The translations under genes and the position numbers were made by a program. Shown piece after piece: positions 1 to 16,353 of a DNA stretch of 26,981 nucleotides (position 1 is its first letter; each line of letters starts with the position of its first letter). Location: IMG/VR virus record IMGVR_UViG_3300045988_122866, positions 1 to 26,981 of that record. The stretch is one strand, 5' to 3'. Source of the DNA: a virus. The notes beneath the pieces were generated by a model. The model was not told the origin of the DNA. It ran no database searches and was given only the letters and a program-made list of their open reading frames with translations.

Positions 1-54
1 AATTGTAGATTTGTAGATTTCTTAAAAATTGTAGATTTGTAGATTTCTTAAAAA
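1..54. repeat. Tandem direct repeat, 2 x 27 bp (aattgtagatttgtagatttcttaaaa), each unit containing a 9-bp sub-repeat tgtagattt x2
   Basis: Read directly: units 1-27 and 28-54 are identical. The window edge cuts any further copies. Confidence 0.75.
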
Positions 55-124
55 TTGTGAGAGTGTGGTACCGATCGGTTTAACAACCAACAACCACATT
101 TTCCCGTCTCCGATCTTCGAACCT

Positions 125-160
125 AAAAAAAAGAGAGACTTTTTTTAGTCTCTCTTTTTT
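125..160. terminator. Bidirectional intrinsic terminator (stem agagagact/agtctctct, T-rich loop) between an A-run and a T-run
   Basis: Perfect 9-bp inverted repeat just downstream (minus sense) of the stop of CDS 228..605. Confidence 0.7.
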
Positions 161-227
161 CATATTAGGCAATTCTTGGTGAAATTGTCGATTCTTAGGA
201 TGAAAAATATCTCACCCGACACATTGT

Positions 228-605
228 TCACTTATTGATGAAAGTATTCAAAAAATCGGCAATTACATCATCATCAGTTCTCTTGACCTTCTTAACCTTT
301 ACTGGCTCACTCTTGGGAAAAAGCACGTCAAGAAGATCGTTAACCCCGGTCATAAGACCGTAAACCTCAGCAAAGATATTCTCCACATCGGACGCGGTCA
401 ACGCAGAATCCTTGTAGCCATTAAGAGCGGCATATTCGTTAATCCGATCGGCAATTTCCTGCGCGAGCGCGGTCTTCCGATCGGCCTGCTTGGTTTCCTT
501 CTCTACCTGCTTAACTGCATCGTTTAGAGACTTAGCCATTTCGTCCGCAATAGCCTGAGCGTCCTCACCATTTTTCAGACGAGCAATAATATCATTCATA
601 TCCAT
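228..605 (-). CDS. Hypothetical small early protein, mostly helical. Start moved to the internal Met (MDMNDII...) because the track's N-terminal extension runs across the promoter.
   Basis: SD AAGAGG 7 nt before the ATG. Consensus promoter about 637-665: -35 TTGACA, 17 bp, -10 TATAAT on the minus strand. TGA stop. Confidence 0.5.
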   Translation of the reverse strand: MDMNDIIARLKNGEDAQAIADEMAKSLNDAVKQVEKETKQADRKTALAQEIADRINEYAALNGYKDSALTASDVENIFAEVYGLMTGVNDLLDVLFPKSEPVKVKKVKRTDDDVIADFLNTFINK

Positions 606-856
606 ATGAATACCTCTTTTCTTATTTTCTATATATATTATATACTTTTTTTTTAAAAATGTCAAGATTTTTTTGGACGAAAACATACGCGTGAAACAAT
701 GTAAGGGCGAAGCAATTTTTAATTAATCATAAAGGCATATGATCCTACGCGGGCTTAAAAAAGTCTTTTTTTACCATTATAACATATTTTTTATAAAAAG
801 TCAATTTTCGGGATTTTTTTGGGCCATATGGAGAGGTGCTAGAAGTATGAAAAATT

Positions 857-990
857 TTGCATATGGGTATACCGATCGGAAACTCGGGCCGGCACGTCCC
901 GCGACGGCCCGGCCATTATACCACATTTTCCGATCGGTGTCAATAGGTAAAATGCACAAAAAAATCAGCAGGTTTTAGTCAACCTGCTGA
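857..990 (-). promoter_or_regulatory. Leader module copy G: minus promoter (-35 about 938-943, -10 TATAAT about 915-920, TGG-extended), GC hairpin about 885-911 at the transcript 5' end, and a terminator hairpin about 966-989 for gene 999..1409
   Basis: Shares the core aaactcgg-[GC hairpin]-ccatt(t)ata(c)caca...tgtcaatag...A-run-terminator with six other copies. The plus-strand promoter is degenerate here. Confidence 0.6.
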
Positions 991-998
991 TTGAATAT

Positions 999-1409
999 TT
1001 ATGCAAGAAATGCACTTACAATTTCATCGAAAACCGTGGGGTTAATGTCCACGTTAAAAAAGCGGTCATTCTTGCGGAACGCTTTGGGGTATCGTCTAAT
1101 CAGTTCCGCACGCAACGCGCTTTCCGCACCCTCGGCGGGATAGTCCCCGCAAGAACGGATTCGATGAACTTCAACGCGCGTGATAGAATACTTTTTCGAG
1201 TATTCACCGATTTCATCACGCAAACGCCCTACAACATCTTTTGCGGAAGTGCCTACCTTGTTAAATTCAAGTTCGTCGTTGTGGTAAAACTTGAAAAAGT
1301 AAACCGCTTGTTCATTTTTCAGATTCTCGCCACAATTAGGCATAAACTCCATAGAAACGGGCGGTCTACCGTCCTTAAATCGGCGTAGCTTAATAGTAAT
1401 TTCTTCCAT
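999..1409 (-). CDS. Hypothetical protein, possibly GIY-YIG/T5orf172-like (VYFFKF...NKVGTSAKDVVGRLRD). Start at ATG 1409.
   Basis: SD GAGAGGA upstream. TAA stop. The 5' UTR contains the conserved stem-loop also found before the exonuclease gene. Confidence 0.5.
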   Translation of the reverse strand: MEEITIKLRRFKDGRPPVSMEFMPNCGENLKNEQAVYFFKFYHNDELEFNKVGTSAKDVVGRLRDEIGEYSKKYSITRVEVHRIRSCGDYPAEGAESALRAELIRRYPKAFRKNDRFFNVDINPTVFDEIVSAFLA

Positions 1410-1430
1410 TGACACAAAATCCTCTCTATT

Positions 1431-1460
1431 GATTGAGGTTTACCATCGTTCTCTCAACCA
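1431..1460 (-). repeat. Conserved 5'-UTR stem-loop element (GGTTGAGAGAACGATGGTAAACCTCAATC on the minus strand), copy 1
   Basis: About 28 nt identical to 4358-4385. Potential 7-bp stem GGUUGAG/CUCAAUC with a 15-nt loop. Sits in the leader of gene 999..1409. Confidence 0.6.
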
Positions 1461-1481
1461 TTATTTTTTGCACTTTTTTGC

Positions 1482-1517
1482 TTGTTTTTGGGTGAAAAAC
1501 CGCATTTTTCAGCGGTT
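1482..1517. terminator. Perfect 14-bp inverted repeat GGGTGAAAAACCGC-N8-GCGGTTTTTCACCC downstream of gene 1533..1940
   Basis: Read directly. T-rich on the plus side. Confidence 0.6.
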
Positions 1518-1532
1518 TTTCACCCTTTTTCA

Positions 1533-1940
1533 TCAATTTTTGGGCTTTCGCTTCTGAATCAGGGTCAATTCGTAGTCATTTTCGCCCACATGAAACGCAA
1601 TCATGCGCTCAATGTTCGTGATTTCCACATTTTCGCACGCATTTTCGCTGTTTTCACGCAAAAAAGTCGCAAGTTCAGCGATAATCGAGCGTTTTGTGGG
1701 ATTTTCCTTGCGCTGTCGCTTCTCAAATTTATAAGCGGTCGGCGCTTTGCGTGTTCCGGTCTTAGAATACTTGTTAGCTTCTTTGAGCTTTTCCGCGGAC
1801 AGGTCAAAGTCCTTGGCGATTCCATGGTCAATGTCATCATCGTCCATGAGAATTTCTTTTGCTTCCTCGGCAGTACAATCTAACTTTTTCATCAGATTAT
1901 CAATCTTTGCCTGAAAGTCCTTTTCACTCATTTTAGGCAT
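1533..1940 (-). CDS. Hypothetical early protein (135 aa)
   Basis: SD AAAGGGGG. Promoter about 1953-1990 (TTGACA-17-TATAAT, minus). TGA stop. Confidence 0.55.
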   Translation of the reverse strand: MPKMSEKDFQAKIDNLMKKLDCTAEEAKEILMDDDDIDHGIAKDFDLSAEKLKEANKYSKTGTRKAPTAYKFEKRQRKENPTKRSIIAELATFLRENSENACENVEITNIERMIAFHVGENDYELTLIQKRKPKN

Positions 1941-2008
1941 TTCTTTTGCCCCCTTTCAAGTATGATTATAACACCGCCGTCAGCAAATGTCAAGAGAAAT
2001 TTTTGGGA

Positions 2009-2038
2009 GCGCCTAATTTTTTTTAGGCGCTCCCCTTG
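2009..2038. terminator. Hairpin gggagcgccta-N-taggcgctccc with a T-run loop, terminator for gene 2041..2418
   Basis: 11-bp inverted repeat immediately after the stop. Confidence 0.6.
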
Positions 2039-2040
2039 AA

Positions 2041-2418
2041 TCAATGCGCCATGCGGAAGTAGGACTTGCGCTTGTCCACAATCTTTTCCACCTTGTTGGC
2101 GTCAATCATCTGGCGCAGAAGAGCGGAAACGCGCTGGTTGGTGAGGTCGCCCAGACCGTCCACATTCTTGATAAGGTCGGTCACGGTATACAGCTTGTCA
2201 GGATTCGCGGACAGCTCAGCAAAGATAATGTCCTTGTAGCCGTCGTTGGCAATCTGATTCGCGGTCGGCTTCTTATCACCGGCGTTCTTGCGAGACAGCA
2301 GGTCGATTTCGTGATTGATAAACTCAACCATAGCGGGGTCAGCCTGAACCTCGGACAGTTTGAGCAGAGCCTCGAAACGGTCGCGCTTGGTGAGCTTCTT
2401 AACAGTAGAAGTAGACAT
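2041..2418 (-). CDS. Winged-helix DNA-binding protein, paralog 1 (…QRVSALLRQMIDANKVEKIVDKRKSYF…)
   Basis: Paralogous to 4471..4845 with identical RBS context (aaaggaattgatactATG). Promoter about 2462-2490 (TTGACA-17-TGGTATACT). TGA stop. Confidence 0.6.
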   Translation of the reverse strand: MSTSTVKKLTKRDRFEALLKLSEVQADPAMVEFINHEIDLLSRKNAGDKKPTANQIANDGYKDIIFAELSANPDKLYTVTDLIKNVDGLGDLTNQRVSALLRQMIDANKVEKIVDKRKSYFRMAH

Positions 2419-2816
2419 AGTATCAATTCCTTTCTTTGGCGGTAGGTCGCTACCCTTTTGATATTATTGAGTATACCACATTTTAGAGGGCTTGTCAAGA
2501 GGTTTCGCAAACTTTTCACACGAATTACTACCCCGACCTGACGGATAATTTATTGTTTGTTGACTCAATCTATTTGTCAGCAAAAATGCTTCGAGGATAG
2601 TTGGTTCAATCAAACTCACTTTCACGTTCAACGTTTGGCTTTACAACGTGGTGTATTATGTTTTCTTCCTATACTTTCTCAAGGTCGCGCGCCCTCGGAT
2701 TTCTTGGGCTACTCCCTCTTGACATTTTCTATTATAACAGATTGCCCACAGATTGCAATTGACAAAATAACCAAATTACGGGAAAAAATTTTCTTCACTT
2801 TTGTGCAACTTTTCTC

Positions 2817-2963
2817 TTGACAAAATTGGCGGGGCGTGGTATAATGGAAAATTCGGACCGCTGCGTACGCTGGCGGTCCGCCCATTTTATCACAAAAATC
2901 CGCGTTTGTCAATAGTCAAAATAGACAAAAAAAACTGCCCATTTTTGGGCAGTTTTTTATTTT
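2817..2963. promoter_or_regulatory. Leader module copy A with convergent promoters. Plus promoter: TTGACA about 2817-2822, N17, TGGTATAAT about 2840-2845. GC hairpin 2854-2880 (cggaccgc/gcggtccg). Minus promoter: -10 about 2884-2889, -35 about 2907-2912. Bidirectional terminator 2935-2952 (ctgccca/tgggcag) between an A-run and a T-run.
   Basis: Both promoters have exact 17-bp spacing. The hairpin sits at about +1 of both transcripts. The overlapping track ORFs 2557..2820 and 2709..2912 are artefacts. Confidence 0.7.
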
Positions 2964-3192
2964 AGTCCAGCAGGTTAATTTCGCCGGGAATTGCGAAAGA
3001 ATCAGCGTCCAGCGTGGAATTGTAGTCCTCGGTAAAGAGTTCAATCATTCCACACTCCATGACGTAATTCTGAACCGACCGCCGAACGTTGTTCCAAAGG
3101 TCAGTTTTTCGGCTTTCCGCGCGGGCTTCCTGTATCTGGATAATGAGTTCGTCCAGTTTCTCGGCGGTCATGTAATTAAAATCCAAATCCAT
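2962..3192 (-). CDS. Hypothetical small protein (start at ATG, M3 of the track ORF)
   Basis: SD AAGGGGGAG. TAA stop. Closely follows CDS 3195..3473 as a two-gene unit. Confidence 0.5.
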   Translation of the reverse strand: MDLDFNYMTAEKLDELIIQIQEARAESRKTDLWNNVRRSVQNYVMECGMIELFTEDYNSTLDADSFAIPGEINLLD

Positions 3193-3194
3193 TT

Positions 3195-3473
3195 TCAAAA
3201 CTCCCCCTTAATGGCTTCTTTCCACGCGTCCCAGCCGAATTTTTCCTTGCTATCCAGTTCCTTGCCAATGTCTTTTGCGGTCAGCAGGTCAAGCTCGTCC
3301 GCAATTTCATCTTCAAAGTTTACCCAAGAGTCGTAGGTCTGAATAATGAAAACTTCATCAGCTTCAAAGACGCCACCGCACTCGGCGCAGATAATATAGT
3401 CATGGTCGATTAAAATACCCATGTGAGGGTCATTGTCATCAGGGACTACAAAAAGGACTTGTTTAGCGTTCAT
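3195..3473 (-). CDS. Hypothetical small CxxC-containing protein. Start at the third ATG (MNAKQVLF…).
   Basis: SD AAGAGGTG 7 nt upstream. The first two ATGs lie at or upstream of the predicted transcription start of promoter 3503-3531. TGA stop. Confidence 0.5.
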   Translation of the reverse strand: MNAKQVLFVVPDDNDPHMGILIDHDYIICAECGGVFEADEVFIIQTYDSWVNFEDEIADELDLLTAKDIGKELDSKEKFGWDAWKEAIKGEF

Positions 3474-3502
3474 GTGAAACACCTCTTTCATTTGATACAT
3501 TG

Positions 3503-3541
3503 ATTATACCATAGGGAATAGGACTTGTCAAGCCCTATTCC
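3503..3541 (-). promoter_or_regulatory. Consensus promoter (TTGACA-17-TGGTATAAT) with the -35 inside a 9-bp inverted repeat GGGAATAGG…CCTATTCCC
   Basis: Read directly. The inverted repeat also lies just downstream of the stop of the exonuclease gene. Confidence 0.65.
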
Positions 3542-3551
3542 CCTATTTTTT

Positions 3552-4328
3552 TTAGCTCATGTTTATCATGGGATTTTCCTTAATGTTTCGCATGAGCGCG
3601 CGCTGAAACTCGGTAGGCTTGGGGCGTTCCACCGTGGGAGTTTTGAAAAGGGACTTTTCCATTTCCTTGTGCTGTCGGACACAATAGCGCAGAATCTCAA
3701 CTTCAATGAGAACATCTTCTAATCCTGTGTGGGATTCATCAAAGCTGTCTTCACCGCTGATAAAGCGATAGAGAATTTCTGCGGTGAAACGGAGCTGTCC
3801 GTTCTTGGTCTTGTAGCCATTCTTTTCGCAATAGTCGCGGTAAGTGGGCATTTTGCCCATAACCTGTCGCGCCATTTTCAACGTGTCCCAAACTTCAAGG
3901 CCGTAGGGGAAGAAATAGCGATACTTGCTTTTCGTGTCCCATCTTTGCGCGTTGTTGCAGGCGTTAAGGTCGAACCGCATATTGTGAGCGCAGACAAAAG
4001 AGCAGTTATAACGCTCGACACATTCGCAGAACGCAAGACGAATTTCGTAAAGGTCAGCCATAATGCGAGTGCCGTTTTGAATGTCCTCAATGTAGCGGGG
4101 AATCTTATCGGCATAGTATGTGGACTGCATAAGGTCGCGCTCGTAGCAGAAAATGTCGCGATTCACAAAAGAATGAGTTTCATAAACATTTCCCTTGGAA
4201 TCAATGACCGCCCACCCAAAGTCGTAGGGAAGCACATTTGACATATCCAGCTTATCGCCGTCCTGAATGGTGTTTGCAGTTTCCGTGTCCAGCATAATAC
4301 CGTAGTTCCTGCGCCTATCAATACCCAT
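3552..4328 (-). CDS. DnaQ-like DEDDh 3'-5' exonuclease
   Basis: Motifs MLDTETA (Exo I), CAHNMRFDLN (Exo II) and HTGLEDV (Exo III with His). SD GGAGACG. TAA stop. Confidence 0.75.
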   Translation of the reverse strand: MGIDRRRNYGIMLDTETANTIQDGDKLDMSNVLPYDFGWAVIDSKGNVYETHSFVNRDIFCYERDLMQSTYYADKIPRYIEDIQNGTRIMADLYEIRLAFCECVERYNCSFVCAHNMRFDLNACNNAQRWDTKSKYRYFFPYGLEVWDTLKMARQVMGKMPTYRDYCEKNGYKTKNGQLRFTAEILYRFISGEDSFDESHTGLEDVLIEVEILRYCVRQHKEMEKSLFKTPTVERPKPTEFQRALMRNIKENPMINMS

Positions 4329-4357
4329 TTTATCGTCTCCTATTGGAAAAGTAGATT

Positions 4358-4385
4358 GAGGTTTACCATCGTTCTCTCAACCTCT
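4358..4385 (-). repeat. Conserved 5'-UTR stem-loop element, copy 2, in the leader of the exonuclease gene
   Basis: Near-identical to 1431-1460. Lies between promoter (TTGACA-17-TATACT about 4387-4415) and the SD. Confidence 0.6.
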
Positions 4386-4435
4386 AAATATAGTATAGCA
4401 CTTTGCTATTGGTTTGTCAATAGTTTTTTTGTAGG

Positions 4436-4466
4436 GCAGGGGATTTTTTTTATCCCCTGCCCTTTT
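4436..4466. terminator. Hairpin gggcagggga-T8-tcccctgccc followed by a T-run
   Basis: 10-bp inverted repeat just beyond the stop of gene 4471..4845. Confidence 0.6.
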
Positions 4467-4470
4467 CCCT

Positions 4471-4845
4471 TTACGCGAGGGAGAAGTAGGACTTGCGCTT
4501 GTCAACCGTCTTGACAACCGTGCCTGCATCAATCATCTGACGCAGAAGAGCAGAAACGCGCTGGTTGGAATACTCCGCAAGCTCGGGAACGCCCTTGATG
4601 AGGTCGGTCACCGTATACAGCTTGTCAAGGTTGGCGGTCATCTCGTCCAGAATGACCTGCTTCACGGCGTCATTCTCCATCTGCTTGGCCGTGGGCTTCT
4701 TGTCGCCCGCGTTCTTCTTGGCGAGCAGTTCAATCTCATGCTCGATGAACGCCACCATATCAGGATTTGCCTGAACCTCGCTCATTTTGAGCAGAGCCTC
4801 GAAACGGTCGCGCTTAGTGAGCTTCTTAGTAGTAGAAGTAGCCAT
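4471..4845 (-). CDS. Winged-helix DNA-binding protein, paralog 2. Start at M18 (MATSTTKKLTKRDRF…).
   Basis: N-terminus and RBS match paralog 2041..2418. Promoter about 4880-4915 (TTGACA-18-TATAAT). TAA stop. Confidence 0.6.
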   Translation of the reverse strand: MATSTTKKLTKRDRFEALLKMSEVQANPDMVAFIEHEIELLAKKNAGDKKPTAKQMENDAVKQVILDEMTANLDKLYTVTDLIKGVPELAEYSNQRVSALLRQMIDAGTVVKTVDKRKSYFSLA

Positions 4846-5345
4846 AGTATCAATTCCTTTCTGGTTTTTAAGACTGTCCTTGTCTATGGTAGTCATTATA
4901 TCATAGGCGGGAGTAGGTTGTCAATAGGTTTTTGCAATTTTTTTTAGGGGCGGTCGCGAGGTTTATTACTATACATCTTGTTTATACCTACCTTTATCTA
5001 TACTCTTAAACCAATTCAAAATTTACTAAGCCATTAGTTTTTAAGGCGGTGGACGAGCATCAGAAATCATCTTGTTTTTACCTCTCTCATTTGATGTATT
5101 CATTATACCCTACGTAGAACGGTTTGTCAAGGGGTTTTTCAAACTTTTTTTGAAAGTTTGTTCGGCACGCCACGCTTGGAACATTCCGTCGGATTTTGGT
5201 ATAATGGTCAAAGGAACTGCCTTTCCGCAGGTCTTACTCTTTCCTCCTGACATTATGTAGTATAGCAGATTGGTAATAATTTGTCTATTGATAAAATAAC
5301 CAAATAACGGGAAAAAATAAAATTGAAATTTGTACGAAATTTCTC

Positions 5346-5490
5346 TTGACAAAAATGCTGGCAGGGTGTATAATGGTAAATTCCGGTCGCAACATGCGTT
5401 AGCGACCGGCCAATTTTAGCACATTCAGATGGTTTTGTCAATAGTCAAAGTAAACAAAAAAATCTCCCCATTTTTGGGGAGATTTTCTTT
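5346..5490. promoter_or_regulatory. Leader module copy B. Plus promoter: TTGACA about 5346-5351, N17, TATAAT about 5369-5374. Hairpin 5383-5409 (ccggtcgc/gcgaccgg). Minus promoter: -10 about 5413-5418, -35 about 5436-5441. Terminator 5462-5483 (atctcccc/ggggagat).
   Basis: Same architecture as copy A. The hairpin stem sequence differs but pairing is preserved. Confidence 0.7.
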
Positions 5491-5747
5491 TAGCCAATCA
5501 CATTGACTTCGGTTTTGACAGGCGTTACCATCTTGTCGCGCGAGAACTCGCGAACCTGACCCGTTTCAAGATTCACCGCGTAGCAATACTGCGAACCTCT
5601 CGACCGGACAAACGGCGTGTTGTTGTTGCTGTCAATTTTGAGATACATTCCCATACCGACCCCATTGGAGCGCGGAGTGGTGAACGTGCCACCGCTGAGA
5701 ATGTTGATAATTTGAAGCTGACCCTTAGTGCCAAAATTTACTTTCAT
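5490..5747 (-). CDS. Hypothetical small protein (start at MKVNFGT…)
   Basis: SD AAGAGGGA. TAA stop. Closely follows CDS 5762..6076. Confidence 0.5.
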   Translation of the reverse strand: MKVNFGTKGQLQIINILSGGTFTTPRSNGVGMGMYLKIDSNNNTPFVRSRGSQYCYAVNLETGQVREFSRDKMVTPVKTEVNVIG

Positions 5748-5761
5748 TTTTATTCCCTCTT

Positions 5762-6076
5762 TCAAAATTCTTCTAAAAAGTGAATCGGCTTATGGTTTGG
5801 TCTGAAAAATGCCATTCCCTCGGTATAAAGAGAATTAAACAAATCTGCGGACACTTCAAACCATTCCGTGCCGCTAATGCGATTGCCTAACTCACTTAAA
5901 GTCAGATGACAAGAATTTTCCATGTCTCGACTTCCGGCGCAAGTGCTACGCATTATCGCTTTCGGATTATGGCTATAATAGCTTTTACGACGCTTTGCAA
6001 GGTTTTTAGTGCCGTCAGAATAGCCAACTTTAACCAAATGGCTATTGGTTAAATTATCCATCATCAAATACAGCAT
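5762..6076 (-). CDS. T5orf172/GIY-YIG-like domain protein
   Basis: LVKVGYSDGTKNLAKRRKSY … EWFEVS resembles the T5orf172 (MUG113) signature. SD GAGGT. TGA stop. Confidence 0.5.
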   Translation of the reverse strand: MLYLMMDNLTNSHLVKVGYSDGTKNLAKRRKSYYSHNPKAIMRSTCAGSRDMENSCHLTLSELGNRISGTEWFEVSADLFNSLYTEGMAFFRPNHKPIHFLEEF

Positions 6077-6232
6077 TTTTACCTCACAGCAGATGGGTAT
6101 TAACCCATTCTGCGGTCACAAGTCCGATTTCCTTAGAGACAACCGTTTCATAGCGGTAATTACCGCCATCAGTTCGTCCGGTCACTTTGGCGAGAACGCC
6201 AAGAGTAAGCCAAAAGTAAGGCATCATTTTTA

Positions 6233-6439
6233 TCACCCCTTATTGCCGACCGAGAAGATGGACTGTAAAAGCACGAGAATAATCCAAATTGCGAGTGCCA
6301 ACTTCCACGAAAATACGATGACGAAAGTGCCGATTGCGGTGATACCAAGAGCGGGAAGAAGCCAACAGAGAAGCCAAACCAAACCAGAGGTAAGCAGGAA
6401 CGAAACAGCGAGAGACAGCAGAATCAAAAGAACAATCAT
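6233..6439 (-). CDS. Small membrane protein (two predicted TM helices)
   Basis: Hydrophobic throughout. Promoter with hairpin-embedded -35 at about 6455-6502. TGA stop. Confidence 0.5.
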   Translation of the reverse strand: MIVLLILLSLAVSFLLTSGLVWLLCWLLPALGITAIGTFVIVFSWKLALAIWIILVLLQSIFSVGNKG

Positions 6440-6494
6440 TTTATTTTCCCCTTTTCATTTGATGTATTTATTATACCATTGGAGTAGGGCTTTG

Positions 6495-6995
6495 TCAAGC
6501 CCTTTTCTCCAAAAGTTCCGAAAGTTTTTCGATAATGTTTACTGCGGTCGGGTCAATGGTAGCGCCCAAGTGCCAACCATTCCGAACCTTTTCATTATCG
6601 TCAACCAAGATAGACACGTCATAGCGGTCGCGCACGCTGTCGGCCTTAGTCGCGCCATACTGGACGCCGTGGAAGTGGTCATAGTGGAAGCCCTGTTCTT
6701 CAAGCCACGCGCGTTTTGCTTCACGCACGAGGTTTTTGTATTCCTCGCTCGAATCCTTAGAGAGCCAAGTGATGATATTGATTTCCCAACCCTCGGCGCG
6801 GAGAAGTTCGCAAACCTCATTCAATTCAGCCATGTCGCACATGGGAACGGCAGTTCGATAGGGCTTAGGATTTTCCGAACGGAGAAGCGCAAGCCAATCC
6901 TTGACGCCGTAGAGGTCAGCGATAGTGCCGTCCATATCAAAGTTGATGGAGCGTCGAGTGGCTACAACGTGGGACTTAATGTAAGTGATTTTCAT
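6495..6995 (-). CDS. HAD-superfamily 5'(3')-deoxyribonucleotidase-like protein
   Basis: HAD motif I FDMDGTIADL and motif III-like ILVDDN. The fold family resembles the T5 Dmp / NT5C type. TGA stop overlaps the next promoter's -35. Confidence 0.6.
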   Translation of the reverse strand: MKITYIKSHVVATRRSINFDMDGTIADLYGVKDWLALLRSENPKPYRTAVPMCDMAELNEVCELLRAEGWEINIITWLSKDSSEEYKNLVREAKRAWLEEQGFHYDHFHGVQYGATKADSVRDRYDVSILVDDNEKVRNGWHLGATIDPTAVNIIEKLSELLEKRA

Positions 6996-7064
6996 TGGTA
7001 TTTACCCCTTTCCTTTACTGTATCTGTATTATACCATACGTTTGCGCAGTTGTCAAGAGAAATT

Positions 7065-7358
7065 TTAGCAATTTTTCGTTTTATTTATCCACTCTTTCCA
7101 CTGGTCTTCGGCAAACTTTTTATATTCTTCCTGCCAAAGACCCCGTGCGATGACATCTTTTACCGCGTCATCAATAGAAAGATATTGGTCGAGAAGAACA
7201 AAGTCCTCGCAAAAGAACCGAGTTCGACCAAAGAATTTGCGGTTAGGGCGGATAACTTCATAGACATAGATGAATAAGAAAGCCCCATACTCATCTCCGC
7301 TGTATGCCTTGACCTCAAAGGTTCTTCCCTCATACTCATAAGTTTTCGGTTTACTCAT
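7065..7358 (-). CDS. Hypothetical protein (97 aa)
   Basis: Track ORF with promoter at about 7380-7418. TAA stop. Confidence 0.5.
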   Translation of the reverse strand: MSKPKTYEYEGRTFEVKAYSGDEYGAFLFIYVYEVIRPNRKFFGRTRFFCEDFVLLDQYLSIDDAVKDVIARGLWQEEYKKFAEDQWKEWINKTKNC

Positions 7359-7426
7359 AGCACTTACCTCTTTCCTTTACTATACCCATAGTATATCAGA
7401 TACTTCTGGATTTGTCAAGAGTTTTT

Positions 7427-7558
7427 TTAATTTTCTTCTTCATAATTTTCGTCTTCTTCTTCACAAGGCGCGATGGGGCTTTCACAGTGGCAACAGGCGA
7501 AATCATCATTTTCACCTTTATAATAATAGCCACAATTAAAACTTTCACAAAATGACAT
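7427..7558 (-). CDS. Micro-ORF, about 43 aa, Cys-rich and acidic (MSFCESFNCGYYYKGENDDFACCHCESPIAPCEEEDENYEEEN). Coordinates +/-2.
   Basis: SD TAGGGGGT 8 nt upstream. Follows 7565..7708. Absent from the track because it falls below the size cutoff. Confidence 0.35.
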   Translation of the reverse strand: MSFCESFNCGYYYKGENDDFACCHCESPIAPCEEEDENYEEEN

Positions 7559-7564
7559 ACTATT

Positions 7565-7708
7565 TTACCCCCTAAAAGATAAGAAATTAAGCAAAATCAG
7601 CACAGGAATAGCGTAGACGATATTGAAATAGTCCCACCCGAGACTTTCACAGGAATAAGCAAAAATAAAGCCAAAAACGAGGCCGAAAATGCCGATTAAA
7701 ATAATCAT
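7565..7708 (-). CDS. Small single-pass membrane protein (start M15). ATGA overlap with the upstream stop.
   Basis: SD GAGGAT. The start codon overlaps the TGA of 7705..7968, suggesting translational coupling. Confidence 0.45.
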   Translation of the reverse strand: MIILIGIFGLVFGFIFAYSCESLGWDYFNIVYAIPVLILLNFLSFRG

Positions 7709-7968
7709 TCTAAATCCTCTATATGACCGTAGTGTTCGTTGATATGCCATTCAAGATAGGCATTAGTCGCAATCTGAATTTCTCTATCCAGCCAGTTATA
7801 AAAATCCTCGGGGTCGCGGGCCATGCGTTCATCAATGATATCTTTGAGAGAAACGCGGTGAGCAAGGAATTCCGAAATATCAAGAGAATCCATAGAAGAA
7901 AGAAGCTCTTCCACACATTCTCCACGAGTAGAGAACTTTTCAGTAGAAAAATCGTGAGTGTAATACAT
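7705..7968 (-). CDS. Hypothetical protein (87 aa)
   Basis: Track ORF. Lies downstream of module C's minus promoter and has its own promoter at about 7990-8035. Confidence 0.5.
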   Translation of the reverse strand: MYYTHDFSTEKFSTRGECVEELLSSMDSLDISEFLAHRVSLKDIIDERMARDPEDFYNWLDREIQIATNAYLEWHINEHYGHIEDLE

Positions 7969-8087
7969 TGTTTATATCCCCTTTCCTTTACGGTAATCAT
8001 AGTATAGCAGATTATTACATTCTTGTCTATTGACAAAATGCCCAAATTCGGGAAAATAATTAGTTGGACTTTTGGCTAAATTTCCTA

Positions 8088-8240
8088 TTGACAAATTGCT
8101 GGGATGGTGGTATAATGGAATTTCCGGCCGTGGCAGGCGCAAACGGCCGGCCATTTTATCACACTATTGGATTTTTGTCAATAGGCAAAATAAATAAAAT
8201 TTTGAGACGAGATTTGGTTATCTCGTCTCAAAATATTTTT
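8088..8240. promoter_or_regulatory. Leader module copy C. Plus promoter: TTGACA about 8088-8093, N17, TGGTATAAT about 8111-8116. Hairpin 8124-8150 (ccggccg/cggccgg). Minus promoter: -10 about 8153-8158, -35 about 8176-8181. Terminator 8203-8230 (11-bp stem tgagacgagat/atctcgtctca).
   Basis: Same architecture as copies A and B. Track ORF 8064..8261 is an artefact. Confidence 0.7.
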
Positions 8241-8691
8241 AACGTTCAGATACAATGCTGAGGTAGCGGACAATCATATCCATTTCGCAACCCATGTCCT
8301 GCTGGTCGCAAACCGCATAACCCACAAGGTCGCCGTCCGCACAAATCGGGTAAACACCATAAGTGTTATTGAAAACAAATGGCTTTCTTTTAAAATCCCA
8401 CTGGGTCGAAACATAAGGCGGAAAGTTTTCCATACCCCGCAGTTTCACGGTAGTATCATAGATTGCGATGGGACGCAGACCGGAATTCGATGCCATTGTA
8501 ATAGCGGTTCGCAGAGCTTCTTCGGTCAAAGAGCCAAGCACTGAATACCTCTTGAAGCAAACGCAGTCGTTATCTTCAATGAAGATTTCGAGCGGGTCTC
8601 CCTCGCGAATCTTCAAAGTCCGGCGAATCTCTTTCGGAATGACCACACGTCCAAGGTCATCAATTCTGCGGATAATACCAGTAGCTTTCAT
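8239..8691 (-). CDS. AbrB/SpoVT-family (swapped-hairpin) DNA-binding regulator with a C-terminal domain of unknown function
   Basis: N-terminus GIIRRIDDLGRVVIPKEIRRTLKIREGDPLEIF matches the AbrB-N/MazE-like fold. TAA stop immediately followed by module C's terminator. Confidence 0.65.
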   Translation of the reverse strand: MKATGIIRRIDDLGRVVIPKEIRRTLKIREGDPLEIFIEDNDCVCFKRYSVLGSLTEEALRTAITMASNSGLRPIAIYDTTVKLRGMENFPPYVSTQWDFKRKPFVFNNTYGVYPICADGDLVGYAVCDQQDMGCEMDMIVRYLSIVSER

Positions 8692-8755
8692 TTTAATTTT
8701 CCCCTTTCATTTAATACGTTAAGTATAGCAGAATAAAAGGCTTTTGTCAAGCCCT

Positions 8756-9229
8756 TTATTCAAGATTTTTGCTTTCCGCAACAAAATATTTTGCTTCATA
8801 CTGATTGGCGATAGCCTTGACTTTTGCGCTTTCCTTTTGGGTCGCGCAGTAGAAATTGAAAAGCGTATGTTTATCGCTCAATTCAATATAAGAGTGTGGG
8901 ACATCATGTAAGTCAAAGTCAATGGTATTAGTGTATTTTGTTGGGACAGTCAGCTCGACTTTCCATAACCGGTCTTTGCGGGCTTTCTCTTCAATCCACT
9001 TGACAAAGTAGACGCCTACGAAATTACAAACAGCAGTAATAGCCATTTTCAACCAGATAGGCATACCGTCCGCGGAAGTCAGCACAATCACATAGGAATA
9101 AAAACCATAAGTGATAGCGTTGATAAGAGACGCGCTAACTTTTCCGCCGTTGACCGTCAAGATGCTTTTGATAGTTGACAGAATCACATTCACCGCCGTG
9201 CAAAGCGCGAACAGAAGAATTGTATTCAT
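8756..9229 (-). CDS. Membrane protein (157 aa, hydrophobic N-terminal half)
   Basis: Track ORF with several predicted TM segments. TAA stop inside a hairpin-embedded -35 element. Confidence 0.5.
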   Translation of the reverse strand: MNTILLFALCTAVNVILSTIKSILTVNGGKVSASLINAITYGFYSYVIVLTSADGMPIWLKMAITAVCNFVGVYFVKWIEEKARKDRLWKVELTVPTKYTNTIDFDLHDVPHSYIELSDKHTLFNFYCATQKESAKVKAIANQYEAKYFVAESKNLE

Positions 9230-9474
9230 TCTACCACCTCAATATCGCAGTAAATACAGTCGGTAATATCGACGTATTCCTCAAAGCTCATTCTTTTATC
9301 GTCGCGATGGGTGAAGTCGATATAGGCATCTTCGCCATGAAGATTATTCTCTTCGTTATATGCGCGGGTGGCATTGTCAAAAGCCTTAATAGCGTCAGCT
9401 TCATTATAAACTACCACTTCTTTGACTTCGGGAGCATCATACCAAATAGTATATTTCTTTTTCATTATTATCAC
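9226..9474 (-). CDS. Hypothetical protein (82 aa)
   Basis: Track ORF. The 4-nt overlap with 8756..9229 suggests coupling. TGA stop. Confidence 0.5.
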   Translation of the reverse strand: MIIMKKKYTIWYDAPEVKEVVVYNEADAIKAFDNATRAYNEENNLHGEDAYIDFTHRDDKRMSFEEYVDITDCIYCDIEVVE

Positions 9475-9528
9475 CCTTTCCTTTTTCTATTATAATAATA
9501 TCATATTATAATAGAAATGTCAATAGAG

Positions 9529-9693
9529 AGTTTTTAATTTACTCTTTTAATTTTTCTAATAGGTCATCAACACATTCGTAGCTGATACTTCTGCGGTCGC
9601 ACTCGTTGGACAAAGGACAACACGCGCAGTCATTAAAGGTTTCCGTCCAAGCGCGCAACCAGTCAATCAAGCGCAAAGTATTAACTTCCTCAT
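9529..9693 (-). CDS. Micro-ORF, about 54 aa, Cys-rich (…NDCACCPLSNECDRRSISYEC…). Its ATG overlaps the TGA of 9690..10037. Coordinates +/-3.
   Basis: ATGA overlap with the upstream stop. Below the track's size cutoff. Confidence 0.3.
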
Positions 9694-10037
9694 ACATTGT
9701 TATCATTCTCCTTTACTCGGACAAAAAAGACCTTGTTATAGATTTTTGTTGCTTTAAGGTCAATCCAGAAATACACGTTTCCGCATACTCGATAGATTTT
9801 ACAAGTCTCTCCGCTAACCTTTTTGACTTCCTCAAATTTCTCTGGTGTTGTAGGGTGGAAAACCGTCAGTTTGAGAAATATGCAATAGAAAGCCAAAGGA
9901 ACGAAGCCGATAATCATAGCAATCCATGCGAGAACATCAGTTAAAGTGTTTTCCCATTCACACCACTCATCGGTGATTGTAGCGAACGCAATACCCACGC
10001 AAAACGCGAGAATCAACCAATACCATGCAACCATCAT
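9690..10037 (-). CDS. Membrane protein (115 aa)
   Basis: Two or three hydrophobic helices. First gene downstream of module D's minus promoter. TGA stop. Confidence 0.5.
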   Translation of the reverse strand: MMVAWYWLILAFCVGIAFATITDEWCEWENTLTDVLAWIAMIIGFVPLAFYCIFLKLTVFHPTTPEKFEEVKKVSGETCKIYRVCGNVYFWIDLKATKIYNKVFFVRVKENDNNV

Positions 10038-10141
10038 TTTAGTCCCCCTTTATTTGTTGTATACATCTTACCACATTATAGGATTTTTGTCTATTGGCAT
10101 TTTACACAAAAATTCGTGCGAAAATTTGTTGAACTTACCTC

Positions 10142-10265
10142 TTGACAAAAAACTCGGCGCGCCACAGTCGTTCGCGCGCCGACGATTTTATCACATTCAA
10201 GGAACTTTGTCAATAGTCAAAACAAATAAAAAATTCAGGCGAGATTTGGTTATCTCGCCTGAAAA
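10142..10265 (-). promoter_or_regulatory. Leader module copy D. Hairpin 10156-10180 (ggcgcgcc…gcgcgcc). Minus promoter: -10 about 10185-10190, -35 about 10208-10213. Terminator 10237-10260 (aggcgagat/atctcgcct). The plus-strand -10 is deleted.
   Basis: A TTGACA lies on the plus strand at about 10142, but no -10 follows at 17 bp. The rest of the core is conserved. Confidence 0.6.
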
Positions 10266-10493
10266 TTACACGTCCCACATGGCTTCCGCAATCCAGAAGT
10301 ATTCATAGCGGAGCTTTGACTGAATCGCAAACAAAGCGTCCGCAATTTCTCCACCGTCTCTGCGGTCTTCCACATTTGAAAATTCCTTGCTCTCTTTCGC
10401 AATTCTTTGAGCTAATTTTTCAATGGCATCTGCCTGTTCTCTCAAAGCCTGCGGGATAGGTTTTTCATTCATTATTTGTTTCCCCCTTTGCAA
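10266..10493 (-). CDS. Hypothetical protein (75 aa)
   Basis: Track ORF. SD AAAGGGGGAAAC. The TAA stop abuts module D's terminator. Confidence 0.5.
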   Translation of the reverse strand: MQRGKQIMNEKPIPQALREQADAIEKLAQRIAKESKEFSNVEDRRDGGEIADALFAIQSKLRYEYFWIAEAMWDV

Positions 10494-10618
10494 AGTTAGA
10501 GGTTAGCTCTAACGTATGTCCGCATTCATCGCAATACCAATAGTAATAAACTGTTCCATACCGGCCATGAGAAGCATTTACAAATTTCATTTCATTTCCG
10601 CAGATGGAGCAATAGCCG

Positions 10619-10822
10619 TCATTCCATGCCTTTTTTATCGGCATTGTGGTCAGCGACTACTGCGCCCGTCATACCGTAGCCAAGAGCGCACGAAATGAGA
10701 AGACCAACCAACAGTCTGACTATTGGGTGAAATTTATCCATGTTGCACCAACAGACAAGACAGACAAATAGCGCGAGGACTGCACTAAAAATTCCGCCAA
10801 CGATTAAAAATTCCATTCCCAT
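10619..10822 (-). CDS. Small membrane protein (67 aa, two TM helices)
   Basis: Track ORF. Start is coupled (TAAAAATGG) to the upstream micro-ORF. Confidence 0.5.
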   Translation of the reverse strand: MGMEFLIVGGIFSAVLALFVCLVCWCNMDKFHPIVRLLVGLLISCALGYGMTGAVVADHNADKKGME

Positions 10823-10824
10823 TT

Positions 10825-10896
10825 TTATTTCCCCTTTTCACATTTAACGCATTGAGCGTGTGTTCCGCACTTTCCATCACAATAAGGACATTTCAT
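10825..10896 (-). CDS. Micro-ORF, 23 aa, five Cys (MKCPYCDGKCGTHAQCVKCEKGK), zinc-ribbon-like. Coordinates +/-1.
   Basis: SD AAAGGGGAA. Its ATG lies 1 nt after the TAA of the preceding 38-aa ORF. Confidence 0.4.
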   Translation of the reverse strand: MKCPYCDGKCGTHAQCVKCEKGK

Positions 10897-10897
10897 T

Positions 10898-11014
10898 TTA
10901 GTTCCCCTTTCTCAGACTCTCTTCAATTTCTTCCCATTCGCTTCTGAACAATTCAATGTTCGTATTGCCGATACACTCTAAAATAGCTTTAATCTGTTCC
11001 TCAGTAAATTTCAT
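10898..11014 (-). CDS. Micro-ORF, 38 aa (MKFTEEQIKAILECIGNTNIELFRSEWEEIEESLRKGN). Coordinates +/-1.
   Basis: SD AAAGGGGAA. Promoter with hairpin-embedded -35 at about 11046-11078. Confidence 0.4.
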   Translation of the reverse strand: MKFTEEQIKAILECIGNTNIELFRSEWEEIEESLRKGN

Positions 11015-11092
11015 TTTTTTTATTCCCCTTTCCTTTGATACATTAAGTATAGCAGAAAAAGGGCTTTTTGTCAAGCCCTTTTCTTATTTTTT

Positions 11093-11455
11093 TCAATTTT
11101 CTTTTCTAATGGAGTAGTAGCTCCGACTTCCCTTTTTGGTGTAGGTCAACTTTCTGTCAATCCAGCAAAGATGACCACAATACCACGAAATAGTGGCGCA
11201 AGAATATTCCTTGCCAGTCTCACGGTAAAGAATAAACTGAATTTCCGTAGGGCGCAGGGGCTTTTCCGCCTTTGAGAGAACATCGAGCATCATGTTTTTC
11301 ATCATGGTGTTGCGGATTTCCTGTTTCAGTTTCCGCGCTTCCTGGGCTTCTTCATACTGTGAGCAAGCTCTCTCCGCGTGGATTTCATCAATTCCGGTGA
11401 AAGTGCCATTGTCAAGGAATTTCTTCAAAAGGCTATAAGTTTCAAAGTTCATCAT
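11093..11455 (-). CDS. Hypothetical protein with a C-terminal winged-helix-like segment
   Basis: …LRPTEIQFILYRETGKEYSCATISWYCGHLCWIDRKLTYTKKGSRSYYSI looks like a wHTH. TGA stop. Confidence 0.45.
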   Translation of the reverse strand: MMNFETYSLLKKFLDNGTFTGIDEIHAERACSQYEEAQEARKLKQEIRNTMMKNMMLDVLSKAEKPLRPTEIQFILYRETGKEYSCATISWYCGHLCWIDRKLTYTKKGSRSYYSIRKEN

Positions 11456-11555
11456 GTCAGTATTCCCTTTCCTTTATTGTGCTTTTATTATAGCATCTGC
11501 TTTTGAATTTGTCAAGAAGTTTTTTGGAAAAAGAGGGAAAAATTTTCCCTCTTTT

Positions 11556-11825
11556 TTACCACTTTACAGTAAGAATACCGTTTGAGTAAGAAGTGGTATA
11601 GCCATAATTCCGCAAAAGATTTTTCAGAGCTTCTTTTACAGCTTCATCTTCAATGGCAACGAGACAGCGAGACAGATAATTTTCGCCCTTTTCCGCGCGG
11701 TCTTCAATATCTTTCATCAGATTTTCTTCGAGATAGGCACGGGCCGTAGCAGTATCTTCTGCGCGCTTGGCGTCGCGAGTTTCCTTGGCGATAGTTGCTA
11801 TTTCGTGAGCATATTTAATTTCCAT
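11556..11825 (-). CDS. Hypothetical protein (89 aa)
   Basis: Track ORF. Promoter with hairpin-embedded -35 at about 11845-11889. TAA stop. Confidence 0.5.
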   Translation of the reverse strand: MEIKYAHEIATIAKETRDAKRAEDTATARAYLEENLMKDIEDRAEKGENYLSRCLVAIEDEAVKEALKNLLRNYGYTTSYSNGILTVKW

Positions 11826-11903
11826 GGTGTTTCTCCCTTTCCTTTATTGTATCTTTATTGTAGCATATAGGGCTTGTTTTGTCAAGCCCTATATACATTT
11901 TTT

Positions 11904-12212
11904 TTAACAGTAAGCCAGATTCCCGCGCGCCCAGCCATATACGCTGATTTGATTGCACGCCTTGCCAATTTCAAGCGCCTGCTTCTTGGTCTGCACCCTC
12001 TTGGACTTGTCAACATAATAGATGCCGTTCGCAAGCCATACGCCGCAGTTTCCGCCGAAGTCCTTAACCGCATTGATAGCTTCGCGTGCGGTCTTACATT
12101 CAACGCCGTTGGTAGCGACTTGCCAGCCGGACTTGTAGTTGACTTTCTTGCCATATTTGAGAGTCAGGCCGTCATTTTCAGCGAGCTTGCGAATAGAACG
12201 AATGTTAATCAT
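11904..12212 (-). CDS. Hypothetical protein (about 102 aa, start MINIRSIRKL…)
   Basis: SD AAAGGGAT. First gene downstream of module E's minus promoter. TAA stop. Confidence 0.5.
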   Translation of the reverse strand: MINIRSIRKLAENDGLTLKYGKKVNYKSGWQVATNGVECKTAREAINAVKDFGGNCGVWLANGIYYVDKSKRVQTKKQALEIGKACNQISVYGWARGNLAYC

Positions 12213-12341
12213 GTTGTTATCCCTTTCCGGTTTGGTAGGTTTTCCTTCCCTTACTGTGATTATAGTATAGCACCGATTCGGGATTCTGTCTATTGACATT
12301 ATGCACAAACTTTCGCCATAAAAATTTGTGCAATCCGCCTA

Positions 12342-12470
12342 TTGACAAAAACTCGGCGCGCCAGGTCCGTTCGCGCGCCGGCCGATTATACTACAAAGTT
12401 TTGGGACTGTCAATAGACAAAATGACAAAAAAATTCGGCAGGATTTTGTGTATCCTGCCGAATTTTTTTT
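12342..12470 (-). promoter_or_regulatory. Leader module copy E. Hairpin 12355-12379 (ggcgcgcc…gcgcgcc). Minus promoter: -10 TATAAT about 12385-12390, -35 about 12408-12413. Terminator 12434-12462 (11-bp stem ttcggcaggat/atcctgccgaa plus a T8 run).
   Basis: Same core as copy D. The terminator directly follows the TAA of 12469..12663. Confidence 0.6.
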
Positions 12471-12663
12471 AATCTTTCCAACTCTCGATGACTTCACCGG
12501 TCATTGCGTCGATAATGTCAACCGAGAGGACGTTGTCCGCGTCCATAAACTTCTGACCGAGGGCGTATGCATTTTCCTGTCCCGCGACAGACACTTCATA
12601 GCGATAATGCCCCATGTCGCCCGCCTTGTAGTTGTAGTAGTTAACAGAAACAATAAATAACAT
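12469..12663 (-). CDS. Hypothetical small protein (start MLFIVSVNYY…)
   Basis: SD AAAGGGGAT. Promoter at about 12680-12720. TAA stop. Confidence 0.5.
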   Translation of the reverse strand: MLFIVSVNYYNYKAGDMGHYRYEVSVAGQENAYALGQKFMDADNVLSVDIIDAMTGEVIESWKD

Positions 12664-12748
12664 TTGGTTTATCCCCTTTCTTTTTATACTCTTATTATAC
12701 CATAGATTCAAGATTTGTCAAGGACTTTTTTCAAGAAAGAAGCGGGGC

Positions 12749-12940
12749 TTAGTAGCCCCGCTTTTCCAAACGGTCCAGGCGTCCAGCAAGGATTCTCGCA
12801 AGAACGGGCTTTGTCCATTTCATCAGACTATCAGCAGTGCTTTGGCAGTTTGCCCAAACCTCCCAAGTTTGGCCCTCGCGAATAATGTCAGCCTTGCGCA
12901 TCTTCATGAACTTCTCGTAATACATTTCGAAAGTATCCAT
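12749..12940 (-). CDS. Hypothetical small protein (63 aa)
   Basis: Track ORF. TAA stop inside hairpin gcggggct-tagt-agccccgc. Confidence 0.5.
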   Translation of the reverse strand: MDTFEMYYEKFMKMRKADIIREGQTWEVWANCQSTADSLMKWTKPVLARILAGRLDRLEKRGY

Positions 12941-13048
12941 AACTAACCTTTCTGGTGTTTGGGATTTTCCTTTCCCTTTCTGATATTATAATACCACAGA
13001 CCGCAAAGAATGTCAAGTGTTTTTTTTCAAAAAAAAAAGAAAAGTTTT

Positions 13049-13171: not shown

Positions 13172-13251
13172 TTGATTTACCTCTTTCTTTCTTTTGATGT
13201 ATTCATTATACCAAACAAAGGGGCTTTTGTCAAGCCCCTTTTTTATTTTTT

Positions 13252-16330: not shown

Positions 16331-16353
16331 TAAATATAGACTGGAGGTAAAAA

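Follow-up and report, generated by a model that had tools for sequence, protein, structure and literature searches.

Convergent-promoter cassettes in the early gene block

We consider here a recurring intergenic element in a 26,981-nucleotide stretch of virus DNA (IMG/VR record IMGVR_UViG_3300045988_122866, positions 1 to 26,981; "the window" below is this whole stretch), in which a consensus promoter on the plus strand faces the promoter of a minus-strand gene across a GC-rich hairpin. Positions 1-15,000 of the window hold a dense run of small minus-strand genes, nearly every one with a consensus sigma-70/sigma-A-type promoter and a terminator of its own, and the gene direction changes to the plus strand from about 16,300. 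A promoter scan gives 77 promoter-like sites in the window where 27 are expected, and the exact arrangement TTGACA-N17-TATAAT is present 15 times against 0.01 expected from shuffles. Inside the minus-strand block, exact promoters on the plus strand occur only at 2817-2845, 5346-5374 and 8088-8116 (cassettes A, B and C), and all the genes that flank them are on the minus strand; the sole further exact plus-strand match, at 16301, stands at the start of the plus-strand gene block.

Read along the plus strand, each of the three cassettes begins with the antisense promoter (Pplus), which is followed by a linker of 7-8 nt, a GC hairpin of 27 nt, a further 2-3 nt, the reverse complement of a sense promoter (P1), an A-run and finally a two-way terminator. 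As the genes run, one meets first the terminator of the upstream gene, then P1, the GC hairpin, Pplus facing P1, a 59-bp spacer, a second sense promoter (P2), the ribosome-binding site and the gene. In A, B and C, P1 matches the consensus at 11 of 12 positions and has an extended -10, and it is met head-on by a Pplus with a match of 12/12. An initial annotation, made from the letters of this DNA, had pointed out these convergent consensus promoters and had described the plus-strand unit as a promoter, a 5' hairpin and a terminator, and both descriptions stand. Its transcript of about 100 nt has to be lengthened, as the predicted plus RNAs are about 110-120 nt, and the TG extension that it gave to the plus-strand -10 of all three copies is missing from B (GGTGTATAAT).

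In cassette A, P2, the gene-proximal sense promoter, lies at 2731-2758 on the minus strand (TTGCAA-16-TATAAT with TG), with its -35 at 59 bp from the antisense -35. Pplus (2801-2845, plus strand) has a TTGTGCA-N9 upstream box and then TTGACA-N17-TGgTATAAT, and its predicted start is at about 2851-2852; P1 (2884-2912, minus strand, TTGACA-17-TGaTAAAAT) is predicted to start at about 2877-2879, within the stem of the hairpin. The hairpin itself (2854-2880), with an 8-bp stem of CGGACCGC/GCGGTCCG and an 11-nt loop, is between both predicted starts, and the two-way intrinsic terminator at 2929-2958 ends the upstream minus-strand gene (2962-3192) and would also end the plus RNA. Cassette B is built from P2 at 5259-5287 (minus strand, TAGACA-17-TATACT with TG), Pplus at 5346-5374 (plus strand), a hairpin at 5383-5409 (stem CCGGTCGC/GCGACCGG), P1 at 5413-5441 (minus strand, TTGACA-17-TAAAAT with TG) and a two-way terminator at 5456-5489. 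The P2 of cassette C (8001-8029, minus strand) is again TAGACA-17-TATACT with TG and lies directly before the ribosome-binding site and ATG of gene 7705-7968. Its Pplus (8088-8116, plus strand) carries the TG, its hairpin is at 8124-8150 (stem CCGGCCGT/ACGGCCGG), its P1, TTGACA-17-TAAAAT with TG, is at 8153-8181 on the minus strand, and its two-way terminator (8199-8234) is downstream of an AbrB/MazE-like gene.

Cassettes A and B are not independent, as both lie within a segmental duplication of about 1 kb. The two copies (1988-2962 and 4415-5491) are 73-78% identical and include paralogous genes of 125 and 124 amino acids (2041-2418 and 4471-4845); in the B copy, the promoter at 5102-5130 and a ribosome-binding site are followed by a 9-codon open reading frame (ORF) only, apparently the remnant of a gene. 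No convincing ORF or non-coding RNA is found on the minus strand downstream of P2 in A or B (2500-2725 and 5140-5250), a distance of 120-225 nt before the next promoter, and the stretches 3' of P2 in the two cassettes share no conservation. Immediately upstream of cassette C, the minus-strand gene 8239-8691 encodes a protein of 150 amino acids whose N-terminal part is a DNA-binding domain of the AbrB/MazE/SpoVT type (Pfam PF04014, E = 3e-10) and which is a candidate regulator of early transcription.

Geometry, polarity and promoter strength

The two -10 elements of a facing pair are 36-38 nt apart in the window and in 31 of the 36 unique pairs from relatives, and 32-34 nt apart in the human-gut phage phAss-1. 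With the usual 7 nt from -10 to start, the predicted start sites of Pplus and P1 fall about 24-27 bp from each other. The footprint of an RNA polymerase open complex extends from about -55 to +20, so that open complexes at Pplus and P1 could not coexist at this separation.

The hairpin is placed unevenly between the two promoters: of the 55 unique hairpin-type cassettes, nearly all have a linker of 7-9 nt between it and one promoter and of 2-4 nt between it and the other. In 49 of the 50 unique cassettes that can be classified, the promoter with the longer linker points against the flanking genes and the one with the shorter linker points along them. Given this asymmetry and polarity, the antisense RNA is predicted to start 1-3 nt before the full hairpin, and the P1 RNA 3-5 nt inside the stem. 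The -10 elements are also unequal: among loci retrieved without bias to either side, the sense -10 is TAAAAT in 15 of 40 and the antisense -10 is always TATAAT, the reverse occurring in 0 of 40. Within the window, consensus match alone makes Pplus the stronger promoter of the pair in A-C (12/12 vs 11/12). The layout read from the sequence is one of facing promoters in which transcription from one would run across the other, and by that same measure of consensus match the promoter that would interfere is stronger than its target.

Each cassette also has a P2 immediately upstream of the ribosome-binding site, composed of TAGACA or TTGCAA, a spacer of 16-17 nt, TATACT or TATAAT, and the TG. Of the 57 unique cassettes scored, 49 have the P2 -35 at 58-60 bp from the antisense -35, 43 of them at exactly 59 (12 more have no detectable divergent promoter); the distance in phAss-1 is about 59-60 bp. 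P1, P2 and the antisense promoter have in common a TTGTGCA box that precedes the -35 by 9 nt, and this shared box at the same spacing points to the antisense promoter being an inverted paralogue of the phage's early promoter type.

Cassettes without the antisense promoter

At least six cassettes are present in the window, three of them (D, E and F) with no antisense promoter, plus a degenerate seventh, G; F was found with a profile of five copies and G with a box search. Cassette D (10065-10263, minus strand) comprises P2 at 10065-10093, a plus-strand TTGACA kept at 10142-10147, the hairpin at 10155-10181, with T6 after it on the minus strand, P1 at 10185-10213 and a terminator at 10234-10263. 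About 22 nt are absent from it, corresponding to the plus-strand spacer and -10. Cassette E (776-992, minus strand) has P2 at 776-804, the hairpin at 885-911, P1 (12/12) at 915-943 and a terminator at 963-992, both plus-strand elements, -35 and -10, being absent. Cassette F (12264-12469, minus strand), which had not been listed earlier, has P2 at 12264-12292, a plus-strand TTGACA without a -10 at 12342-12347, the hairpin at 12354-12380, P1 (12/12) at 12385-12413 and a terminator at 12427-12469. In G (14811-14975, minus strand), we find a sense promoter with a TTGTGCA box at 14811-14839 and a hairpin at 14949-14975 (CGGCTCGC/GCGAGCCG), and neither of the flanking convergent promoters is good. 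The proposal that D and E have lost exactly the plus-strand -10 is therefore right for D only insofar as its -35 is kept, since the spacer has gone together with the -10, and it does not fit E.

Conservation in relatives

A pattern based on P1 retrieves 56 IMG/VR loci, and the subsequent profile search gives 70 unique cassettes. The antisense promoter, the hairpin and P1 are found together in 41 of the 70 (class I), and the other 29 have P1 and the hairpin with no antisense promoter (class II). Within class II, the D and F lineages and several others keep the plus-strand -35 beside the hairpin with about 22 nt (spacer and -10) gone, and the E lineage has neither plus-strand element. Class III, with the antisense promoter and hairpin and no P1, is seen in relatives only. 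Of the 41 class I cassettes, 39 have TTGACA and 38 have TATAAT as antisense hexamers, the spacing is 17 nt in 39, and the spacer is about 65% conserved in 12 lineage representatives; P1 follows the same pattern. No point-decayed antisense promoter is present among the retrieved cassettes, in which the promoter is either intact, or has lost its spacer and -10, or is gone as a whole. Near-invariant hexamers between drifting spacers, together with the lack of any point-decayed cassette, argue for purifying selection on the antisense promoter. The suggestion that this promoter can be gained or lost is sustained for long time scales only, as its state is fixed per cassette lineage across about 15 close relatives.

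In phAss-1 there are two face-to-face pairs with a GC hairpin and one lone antisense promoter, all within the right-end 11.6 kb; neither the 39 kb examined of its middle region nor the early region of Enterococcus phage EF1 contains a related cassette. A generic IMG/VR scan for perfect face-to-face pairs yields at least 119 stretches with at least 120 unique pairs, and among the matches listed a GC-rich hairpin separates the -10 boxes in about two thirds of the unique pairs. Over all retrieved loci and the window, at least 25 distinct stems are present, in contigs from many samples. Other, AT-richer phage groups (IMG/VR L183, L187, L201, L241 and L252; also L190, L212, L234 and L270) likewise show perfect face-to-face pairs whose -10 boxes stand on either side of an inverted repeat, such as TGGGTAA...TTACCCA or TTACGGAATTCCGTAA, and convergent promoters with a palindrome may be more general than this clade.

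The number and order of the cassettes differ among relatives. At the right edges of C and D (about 8190-8200 and 10225-10235), a comparison with the IMG/VR loci L006, L033, L026 and L054 finds the same cassette joined to a different terminator and upstream gene, and the terminator of the window's D stands in L033 behind a different cassette that bears the antisense promoter. The position of the junction break at the A-run suggests that recombination at the cassette edge shuffles early genes.

The phage and its genome

The proteins of the window are 40-58% identical in amino acids (about 50%) to those of phAss-1, which is filed in GenBank as 'Caudoviricetes code 15 clade', and 40-50% identical to those of the large Enterococcus siphoviruses EF1, H1 and VRE9 (PMC10607447); in the phage collection, a nucleotide search gives no close relative of the window. 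Like phAss-1, the phage appears to read TAG as an amino acid. Its late or plus-strand genes (16351-24004) are interrupted by in-frame TAG codons, and reading through TAG joins them into long ORFs, all on the plus strand: 16351-17409 (352 amino acids, sigma-factor-like, with 2 TAG), 17441-18646 (401 amino acids, 9 TAG), 18643-20385 (580 amino acids, 6 TAG) and 20738-22417 (559 amino acids, portal-like, 11 TAG). The stop codons of the 31 called early minus-strand genes are TAA in 18, TGA in 13 and TAG in none. It is from these merged ORFs and the complete lack of TAG at the ends of early genes that recoding is proposed; no suppressor tRNA is found within the window.

The host of this large gut phage is probably a member of the Clostridia, and the region resembles, by analogy, the host-takeover early region of a large Firmicutes phage, for which the SPO1 host-takeover module is the textbook analogue. 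To our knowledge, there has been hardly any study of early transcription in the large phages that infect gut Firmicutes. Positions 15130-15310, in the AT-rich stretch without genes that separates the minus-strand early block from the genes after it, contain four tandem-like copies of AATCAATTTTCAATTTCAGAATACG.TTTAAAACAA, in two 64-nt units of 91% identity that are each internally repeated. These repeats are iteron-like, and a replication origin or a protein-binding array is possible.

The GC hairpin

The 8-bp stem is 94% paired over 36 distinct hairpins, and its covariation amounts to 62-67 doubly changed cells against 21-28 after shuffling and 3-18 with the partners slid. The hairpin is a selected structure, and it adjoins at least one predicted start site in every case. 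Its folding energies are alike on either strand. The stem is almost purely Watson-Crick, with wobble pairs in its outer part balanced at two plus and two minus; the G-U pairs of the apical 2-bp mini-stem are 11 in the plus sense and 2 in the minus sense, and they come from two or three lineages only. Loop positions C17 and G18 are near-invariant in the close clade, and the loops vary in the wider family.

A hairpin with a U-run that would terminate the plus RNA immediately has also been considered; it fits only those P1s that have TAAAAT, not the 25 of 40 with TATAAT, and is rejected as a general explanation. On the minus strand, T5-T6 after the hairpin is limited to D, F and some relatives, so a role as a second terminator is possible for that class and not in general. 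Mimicry of CRISPR repeats is not borne out by a degenerate pattern of the C-type hairpin, the one hairpin type searched, which gave single matches per stretch and no arrays; these matches are nearly all in GC-rich or environmental lineages.

The predicted antisense RNA

The predicted plus RNA is a discrete short RNA in that it has a 12/12 promoter of its own and a T-run terminator about 110 nt on, though this terminator is shared with the upstream gene. Its predicted fold has a hairpin at the 5' end, then about 45 nt of open core and then the terminator, with z-scores of -5.8 to -6.1. What had been taken for the AU-rich core of a classic trans-acting small RNA (sRNA) consists of CCATTTTATCACA (P1's TGTGATAAAATGG) and TTGTCAATAG, which holds the -35 of P1. 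The conserved positions of this core coincide with the -10, the TG extension and the -35 of P1 read backwards; the remainder is 33-58% conserved, and the 11 nt between the P1 elements vary freely among cassettes. The cassettes of class III have, in place of P1, an RNA body that is unrelated or very short. The terminator is that of the upstream gene, and it is two-way to the same degree whether or not the cassette has an antisense promoter. Since the core is made of P1 elements, the class III bodies are unrelated and the terminator is shared, a trans-acting seed is not supported, and neither is the classic sRNA design put forward in the initial annotation; the hairpin of the RNA may still have a role.

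At a permissive threshold, Rfam returns no family (best STnc230, E = 0.22, at 33 bits where the gathering score is 50), and no anti-Shine-Dalgarno-like motif is found in the A/U-rich core. No coding potential is seen in the plus RNAs, that of A having no ATG, and a 43-codon ORF through the hairpin of E is rejected as non-coding because the compensatory changes alter its codons. A tie between the plus-strand T-run and the antisense promoter was likewise tried and gains no support either way, the terminators being equally two-way in both classes. With start sites taken from the consensus, the predicted RNAs of Pplus and P1 overlap by about 24-27 nt, which is the hairpin. The ribosome-binding site of the sense gene lies about 150 nt downstream of this overlap, after P2, and the overlap holds no functional target site.

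Interpretation

We favour, at a probability of about 0.42, the reading of the element as a convergent-promoter cassette that acts by promoter competition and transcriptional interference, with a short stable antisense RNA released. Each cassette would be a hard-wired regulatory unit of three promoters between two early transcription units. Pplus, a full-consensus promoter of the host sigma-A type with its start about 24-27 bp from that of P1, would hold a polymerase that excludes another from P1 by a front-end clash. A polymerase that escapes from Pplus would cross the -10 and the -35 of P1 and stop at the two-way terminator of the upstream gene. Transcription driven by P1, and probably upstream read-through too, would be damped on its way into the next gene, and P2 would remain as an insulated proximal promoter. 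The by-product would be an RNA of about 110-120 nt with a hairpin at each end, which is likely stable and may add an antisense effect.

This interference reading is preferred because of the rigid gap between the -10 elements, the polarity in 49 of 50 cassettes, the asymmetry in strength, the selected hexamers, the lack of conservation in the RNA body beyond P1 and the fixed spacing of P2. The pR/pL promoters of phage 186 are the classic case of interference by elongation. Transcriptional interference at pR/pL (Dodd 1990; Callen 2004) is cited in the work on the Ecl18kI restriction-modification system, where a strong promoter is masked, through a front-end clash, by polymerase at a stronger promoter face to face with it (PMC2760811). 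Several points weigh on the other side. The start sites and promoter strengths are predictions from the consensus, and the class III cassettes, being without P1, imply that the antisense promoter has some role independent of P1. The covarying hairpin, which is the sole element common to all three classes, is not needed by pure interference; in A and B, the 120-225 nt after P2 hold no clear gene; and there is no evident reason to keep a P1 that is mostly masked.

The released RNA may instead be the effector, as a cis-antisense RNA of about 110 nt whose pairing would lead to RNase III exposure or to the loss of a protective 5' structure. Its 5' hairpin is perfectly complementary to the first 25 nt or so of the predicted P1 mRNA, and its body to any upstream read-through; the predicted overlap equals the hairpin, and the stems differ from cassette to cassette (three in A, B and C of one genome), which would keep the pairs private. 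The whole hairpin is within 1-3 nt of the predicted RNA 5' end in nearly all cassettes, a feature that matters only for an RNA, and the hairpins at both ends (z of about -6) and the lean of the apical G-U pairs to the plus sense (11 vs 2) point the same way, as does the likeness of the layout to IS10 pIN/pOUT. A similar layout is that of RnaG/icsA (PMC2879508). The overlap, however, contains no ribosome-binding site or coding sequence, the complementary segments are both locked in stable stems, cassettes without P1 exist, and the G-U bias comes from two or three lineages and stands beside outer-stem wobbles balanced at 2 vs 2; we consider a cis-antisense effector unlikely. Rather less probable to us is a widespread new family of phage small RNAs of about 110 nt with a variable 5'-terminal GC hairpin, which gut phages that recode TAG, and relatives of these, would carry in several copies each. 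In such a family the effect would come from the RNA itself, which might, for instance, be a private antisense partner for the sense RNA of its cassette or serve to decoy a host RNA-binding protein, an RNase or a defence sensor, and the convergent geometry would couple its synthesis inversely to early sense transcription. A trans-acting sRNA that pairs with mRNAs of the host or the phage through a seed in the AU-rich single-stranded core would account for a consensus promoter of its own, a 5' stem-loop, an open core, a U-tailed terminator and the keeping of the unit across relatives, but we give it very little credence: what is conserved in the core is the -10, TG and -35 of P1, with the rest varying, the bodies without P1 are unrelated or very short, anti-Shine-Dalgarno-like motif and Rfam match are both missing, and the terminator serves the upstream gene too and is found equally where the antisense promoter is lacking.

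The antisense promoter and P2 could instead form a rigid divergent pair in which polymerase on the former stimulates P2 through the shared boxes, bending or negative supercoiling, the hairpin and terminator merely disposing of an unwanted transcript. The near-constant distance between their -35 elements, which recurs in phAss-1, the inverted TTGTGCA-N9 boxes between both promoters, the weak -35 of P2 (TAGACA or TTGCAA) and the survival of the divergent pair in cassettes without P1 all fit such a role, which nevertheless seems improbable to us, since D, E and F drive genes from P2 with no antisense promoter, a transcript of about 100 nt would be expected to give little torsional stress and no factor is known for the TTGTGCA box. 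Alternatively, the cassettes may be mainly mobile promoter/terminator modules that shuffle early genes, the antisense promoter being a tolerated by-product of inverted duplication. Its being an inverted paralogue of P1 and P2, with an identical upstream box at equal spacing, agrees with this, and so do the switches of terminator and upstream gene at one cassette among relatives, which break at the A-run, the varying number and order of cassettes, the position of A and B in a segmental duplication, and the precedent of such modules in T4-type phages (PMC2839356, PMC4122927). A by-product would decay, though, and here the hexamers are near-invariant while the spacers drift, and the asymmetries of polarity, linker and strength are stereotyped (49/50; 0/40) as far as phAss-1; recombination as the whole explanation strikes us as quite improbable.

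The cassette is a compact and rigid arrangement of three polymerase-binding sites that is repeated often and conserved between this phage, phAss-1 and many relatives known from metagenomes. If the interference reading is true, it would be a natural device, free of any regulator, that insulates and tunes adjacent early units through polymerase traffic, and a ready-made synthetic-biology part for Gram-positive hosts. Competition between promoters at close range can also be tested on it directly, as there are dozens of natural variants, some of which lack the antisense promoter (D, E and F) or, in cassettes of relatives, P1, and serve as natural "knock-outs".

Comparison with known systems

The promoter-early stem-loop (PeSL) cassettes of T4-type phages are composites of a terminator and a promoter (Arbiol 2010, PMC2839356; Comeau 2014, PMC4122927). 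Like them, the element described here is a short composite of a strong host-type early promoter and a stem-loop or terminator, repeated many times between small early genes, and it is tied to gene shuffling, the same cassette standing at differing junctions of terminator and upstream gene between relatives. It differs in having three promoters in a rigid geometry, one of them antisense, whereas the PeSL descriptions (PMC2839356, PMC4122927) mention none that is antisense; in its second hairpin, which is at the start sites and is not a terminator; and in its carrier, a phage akin to phAss-1 and to large siphoviruses of the EF1 kind, with a presumed Gram-positive host, not a T4-type myovirus. 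A second, simpler cassette type in the window, the repeat family D1 (3469-3538, 6436-6505, 8688-8757, 11012-11081, 13171-13240 and others), is built around a GC hairpin (e.g. GGGCTTTGTCAAGCCC) whose loop contains the TTGACA -35 of a sense promoter and which also resembles the terminator of the upstream gene. As a compact terminator/promoter composite, D1 is very like the PeSLs of T4-type phages.

In IS10 pIN/pOUT (RNA-OUT), P22 sar and lambda OOP, a strong promoter that converges with a sense promoter makes a short, structured and terminated antisense RNA, the start sites of IS10 pIN and pOUT being about 36 bp apart. In those systems the overlap covers the translation start or the coding end of the target, unlike that of the present cassettes, where it takes in only the 5' hairpin, about 150 nt upstream of the gene, and no ribosome-binding site of a target. 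RnaG, of about 450 nt, acts on the icsA leader and causes premature termination. The convergent promoters of the cassettes are like those of RnaG/icsA in Shigella, where the antisense RNA acts transcriptionally on the sense 5' leader together with interference (PMC2879508), with the difference that no alternative leader structure is evident in the cassettes.

The closest parallel in mechanism, if the interference reading holds, is with phage 186 pR/pL and Ecl18kI Pm/Pr, where a convergent pair is likewise close enough for the stronger promoter to reduce the weaker, which for the cassettes is deduced from sequence. Those pairs are single-copy and controlled by a repressor or a methyltransferase, while the cassettes have no identified operator or regulator. 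In the cassettes, moreover, the pair occurs three times in the window and many times in relatives, the starts are closer (about 25 bp), and the interfering transcript ends after about 110 nt.

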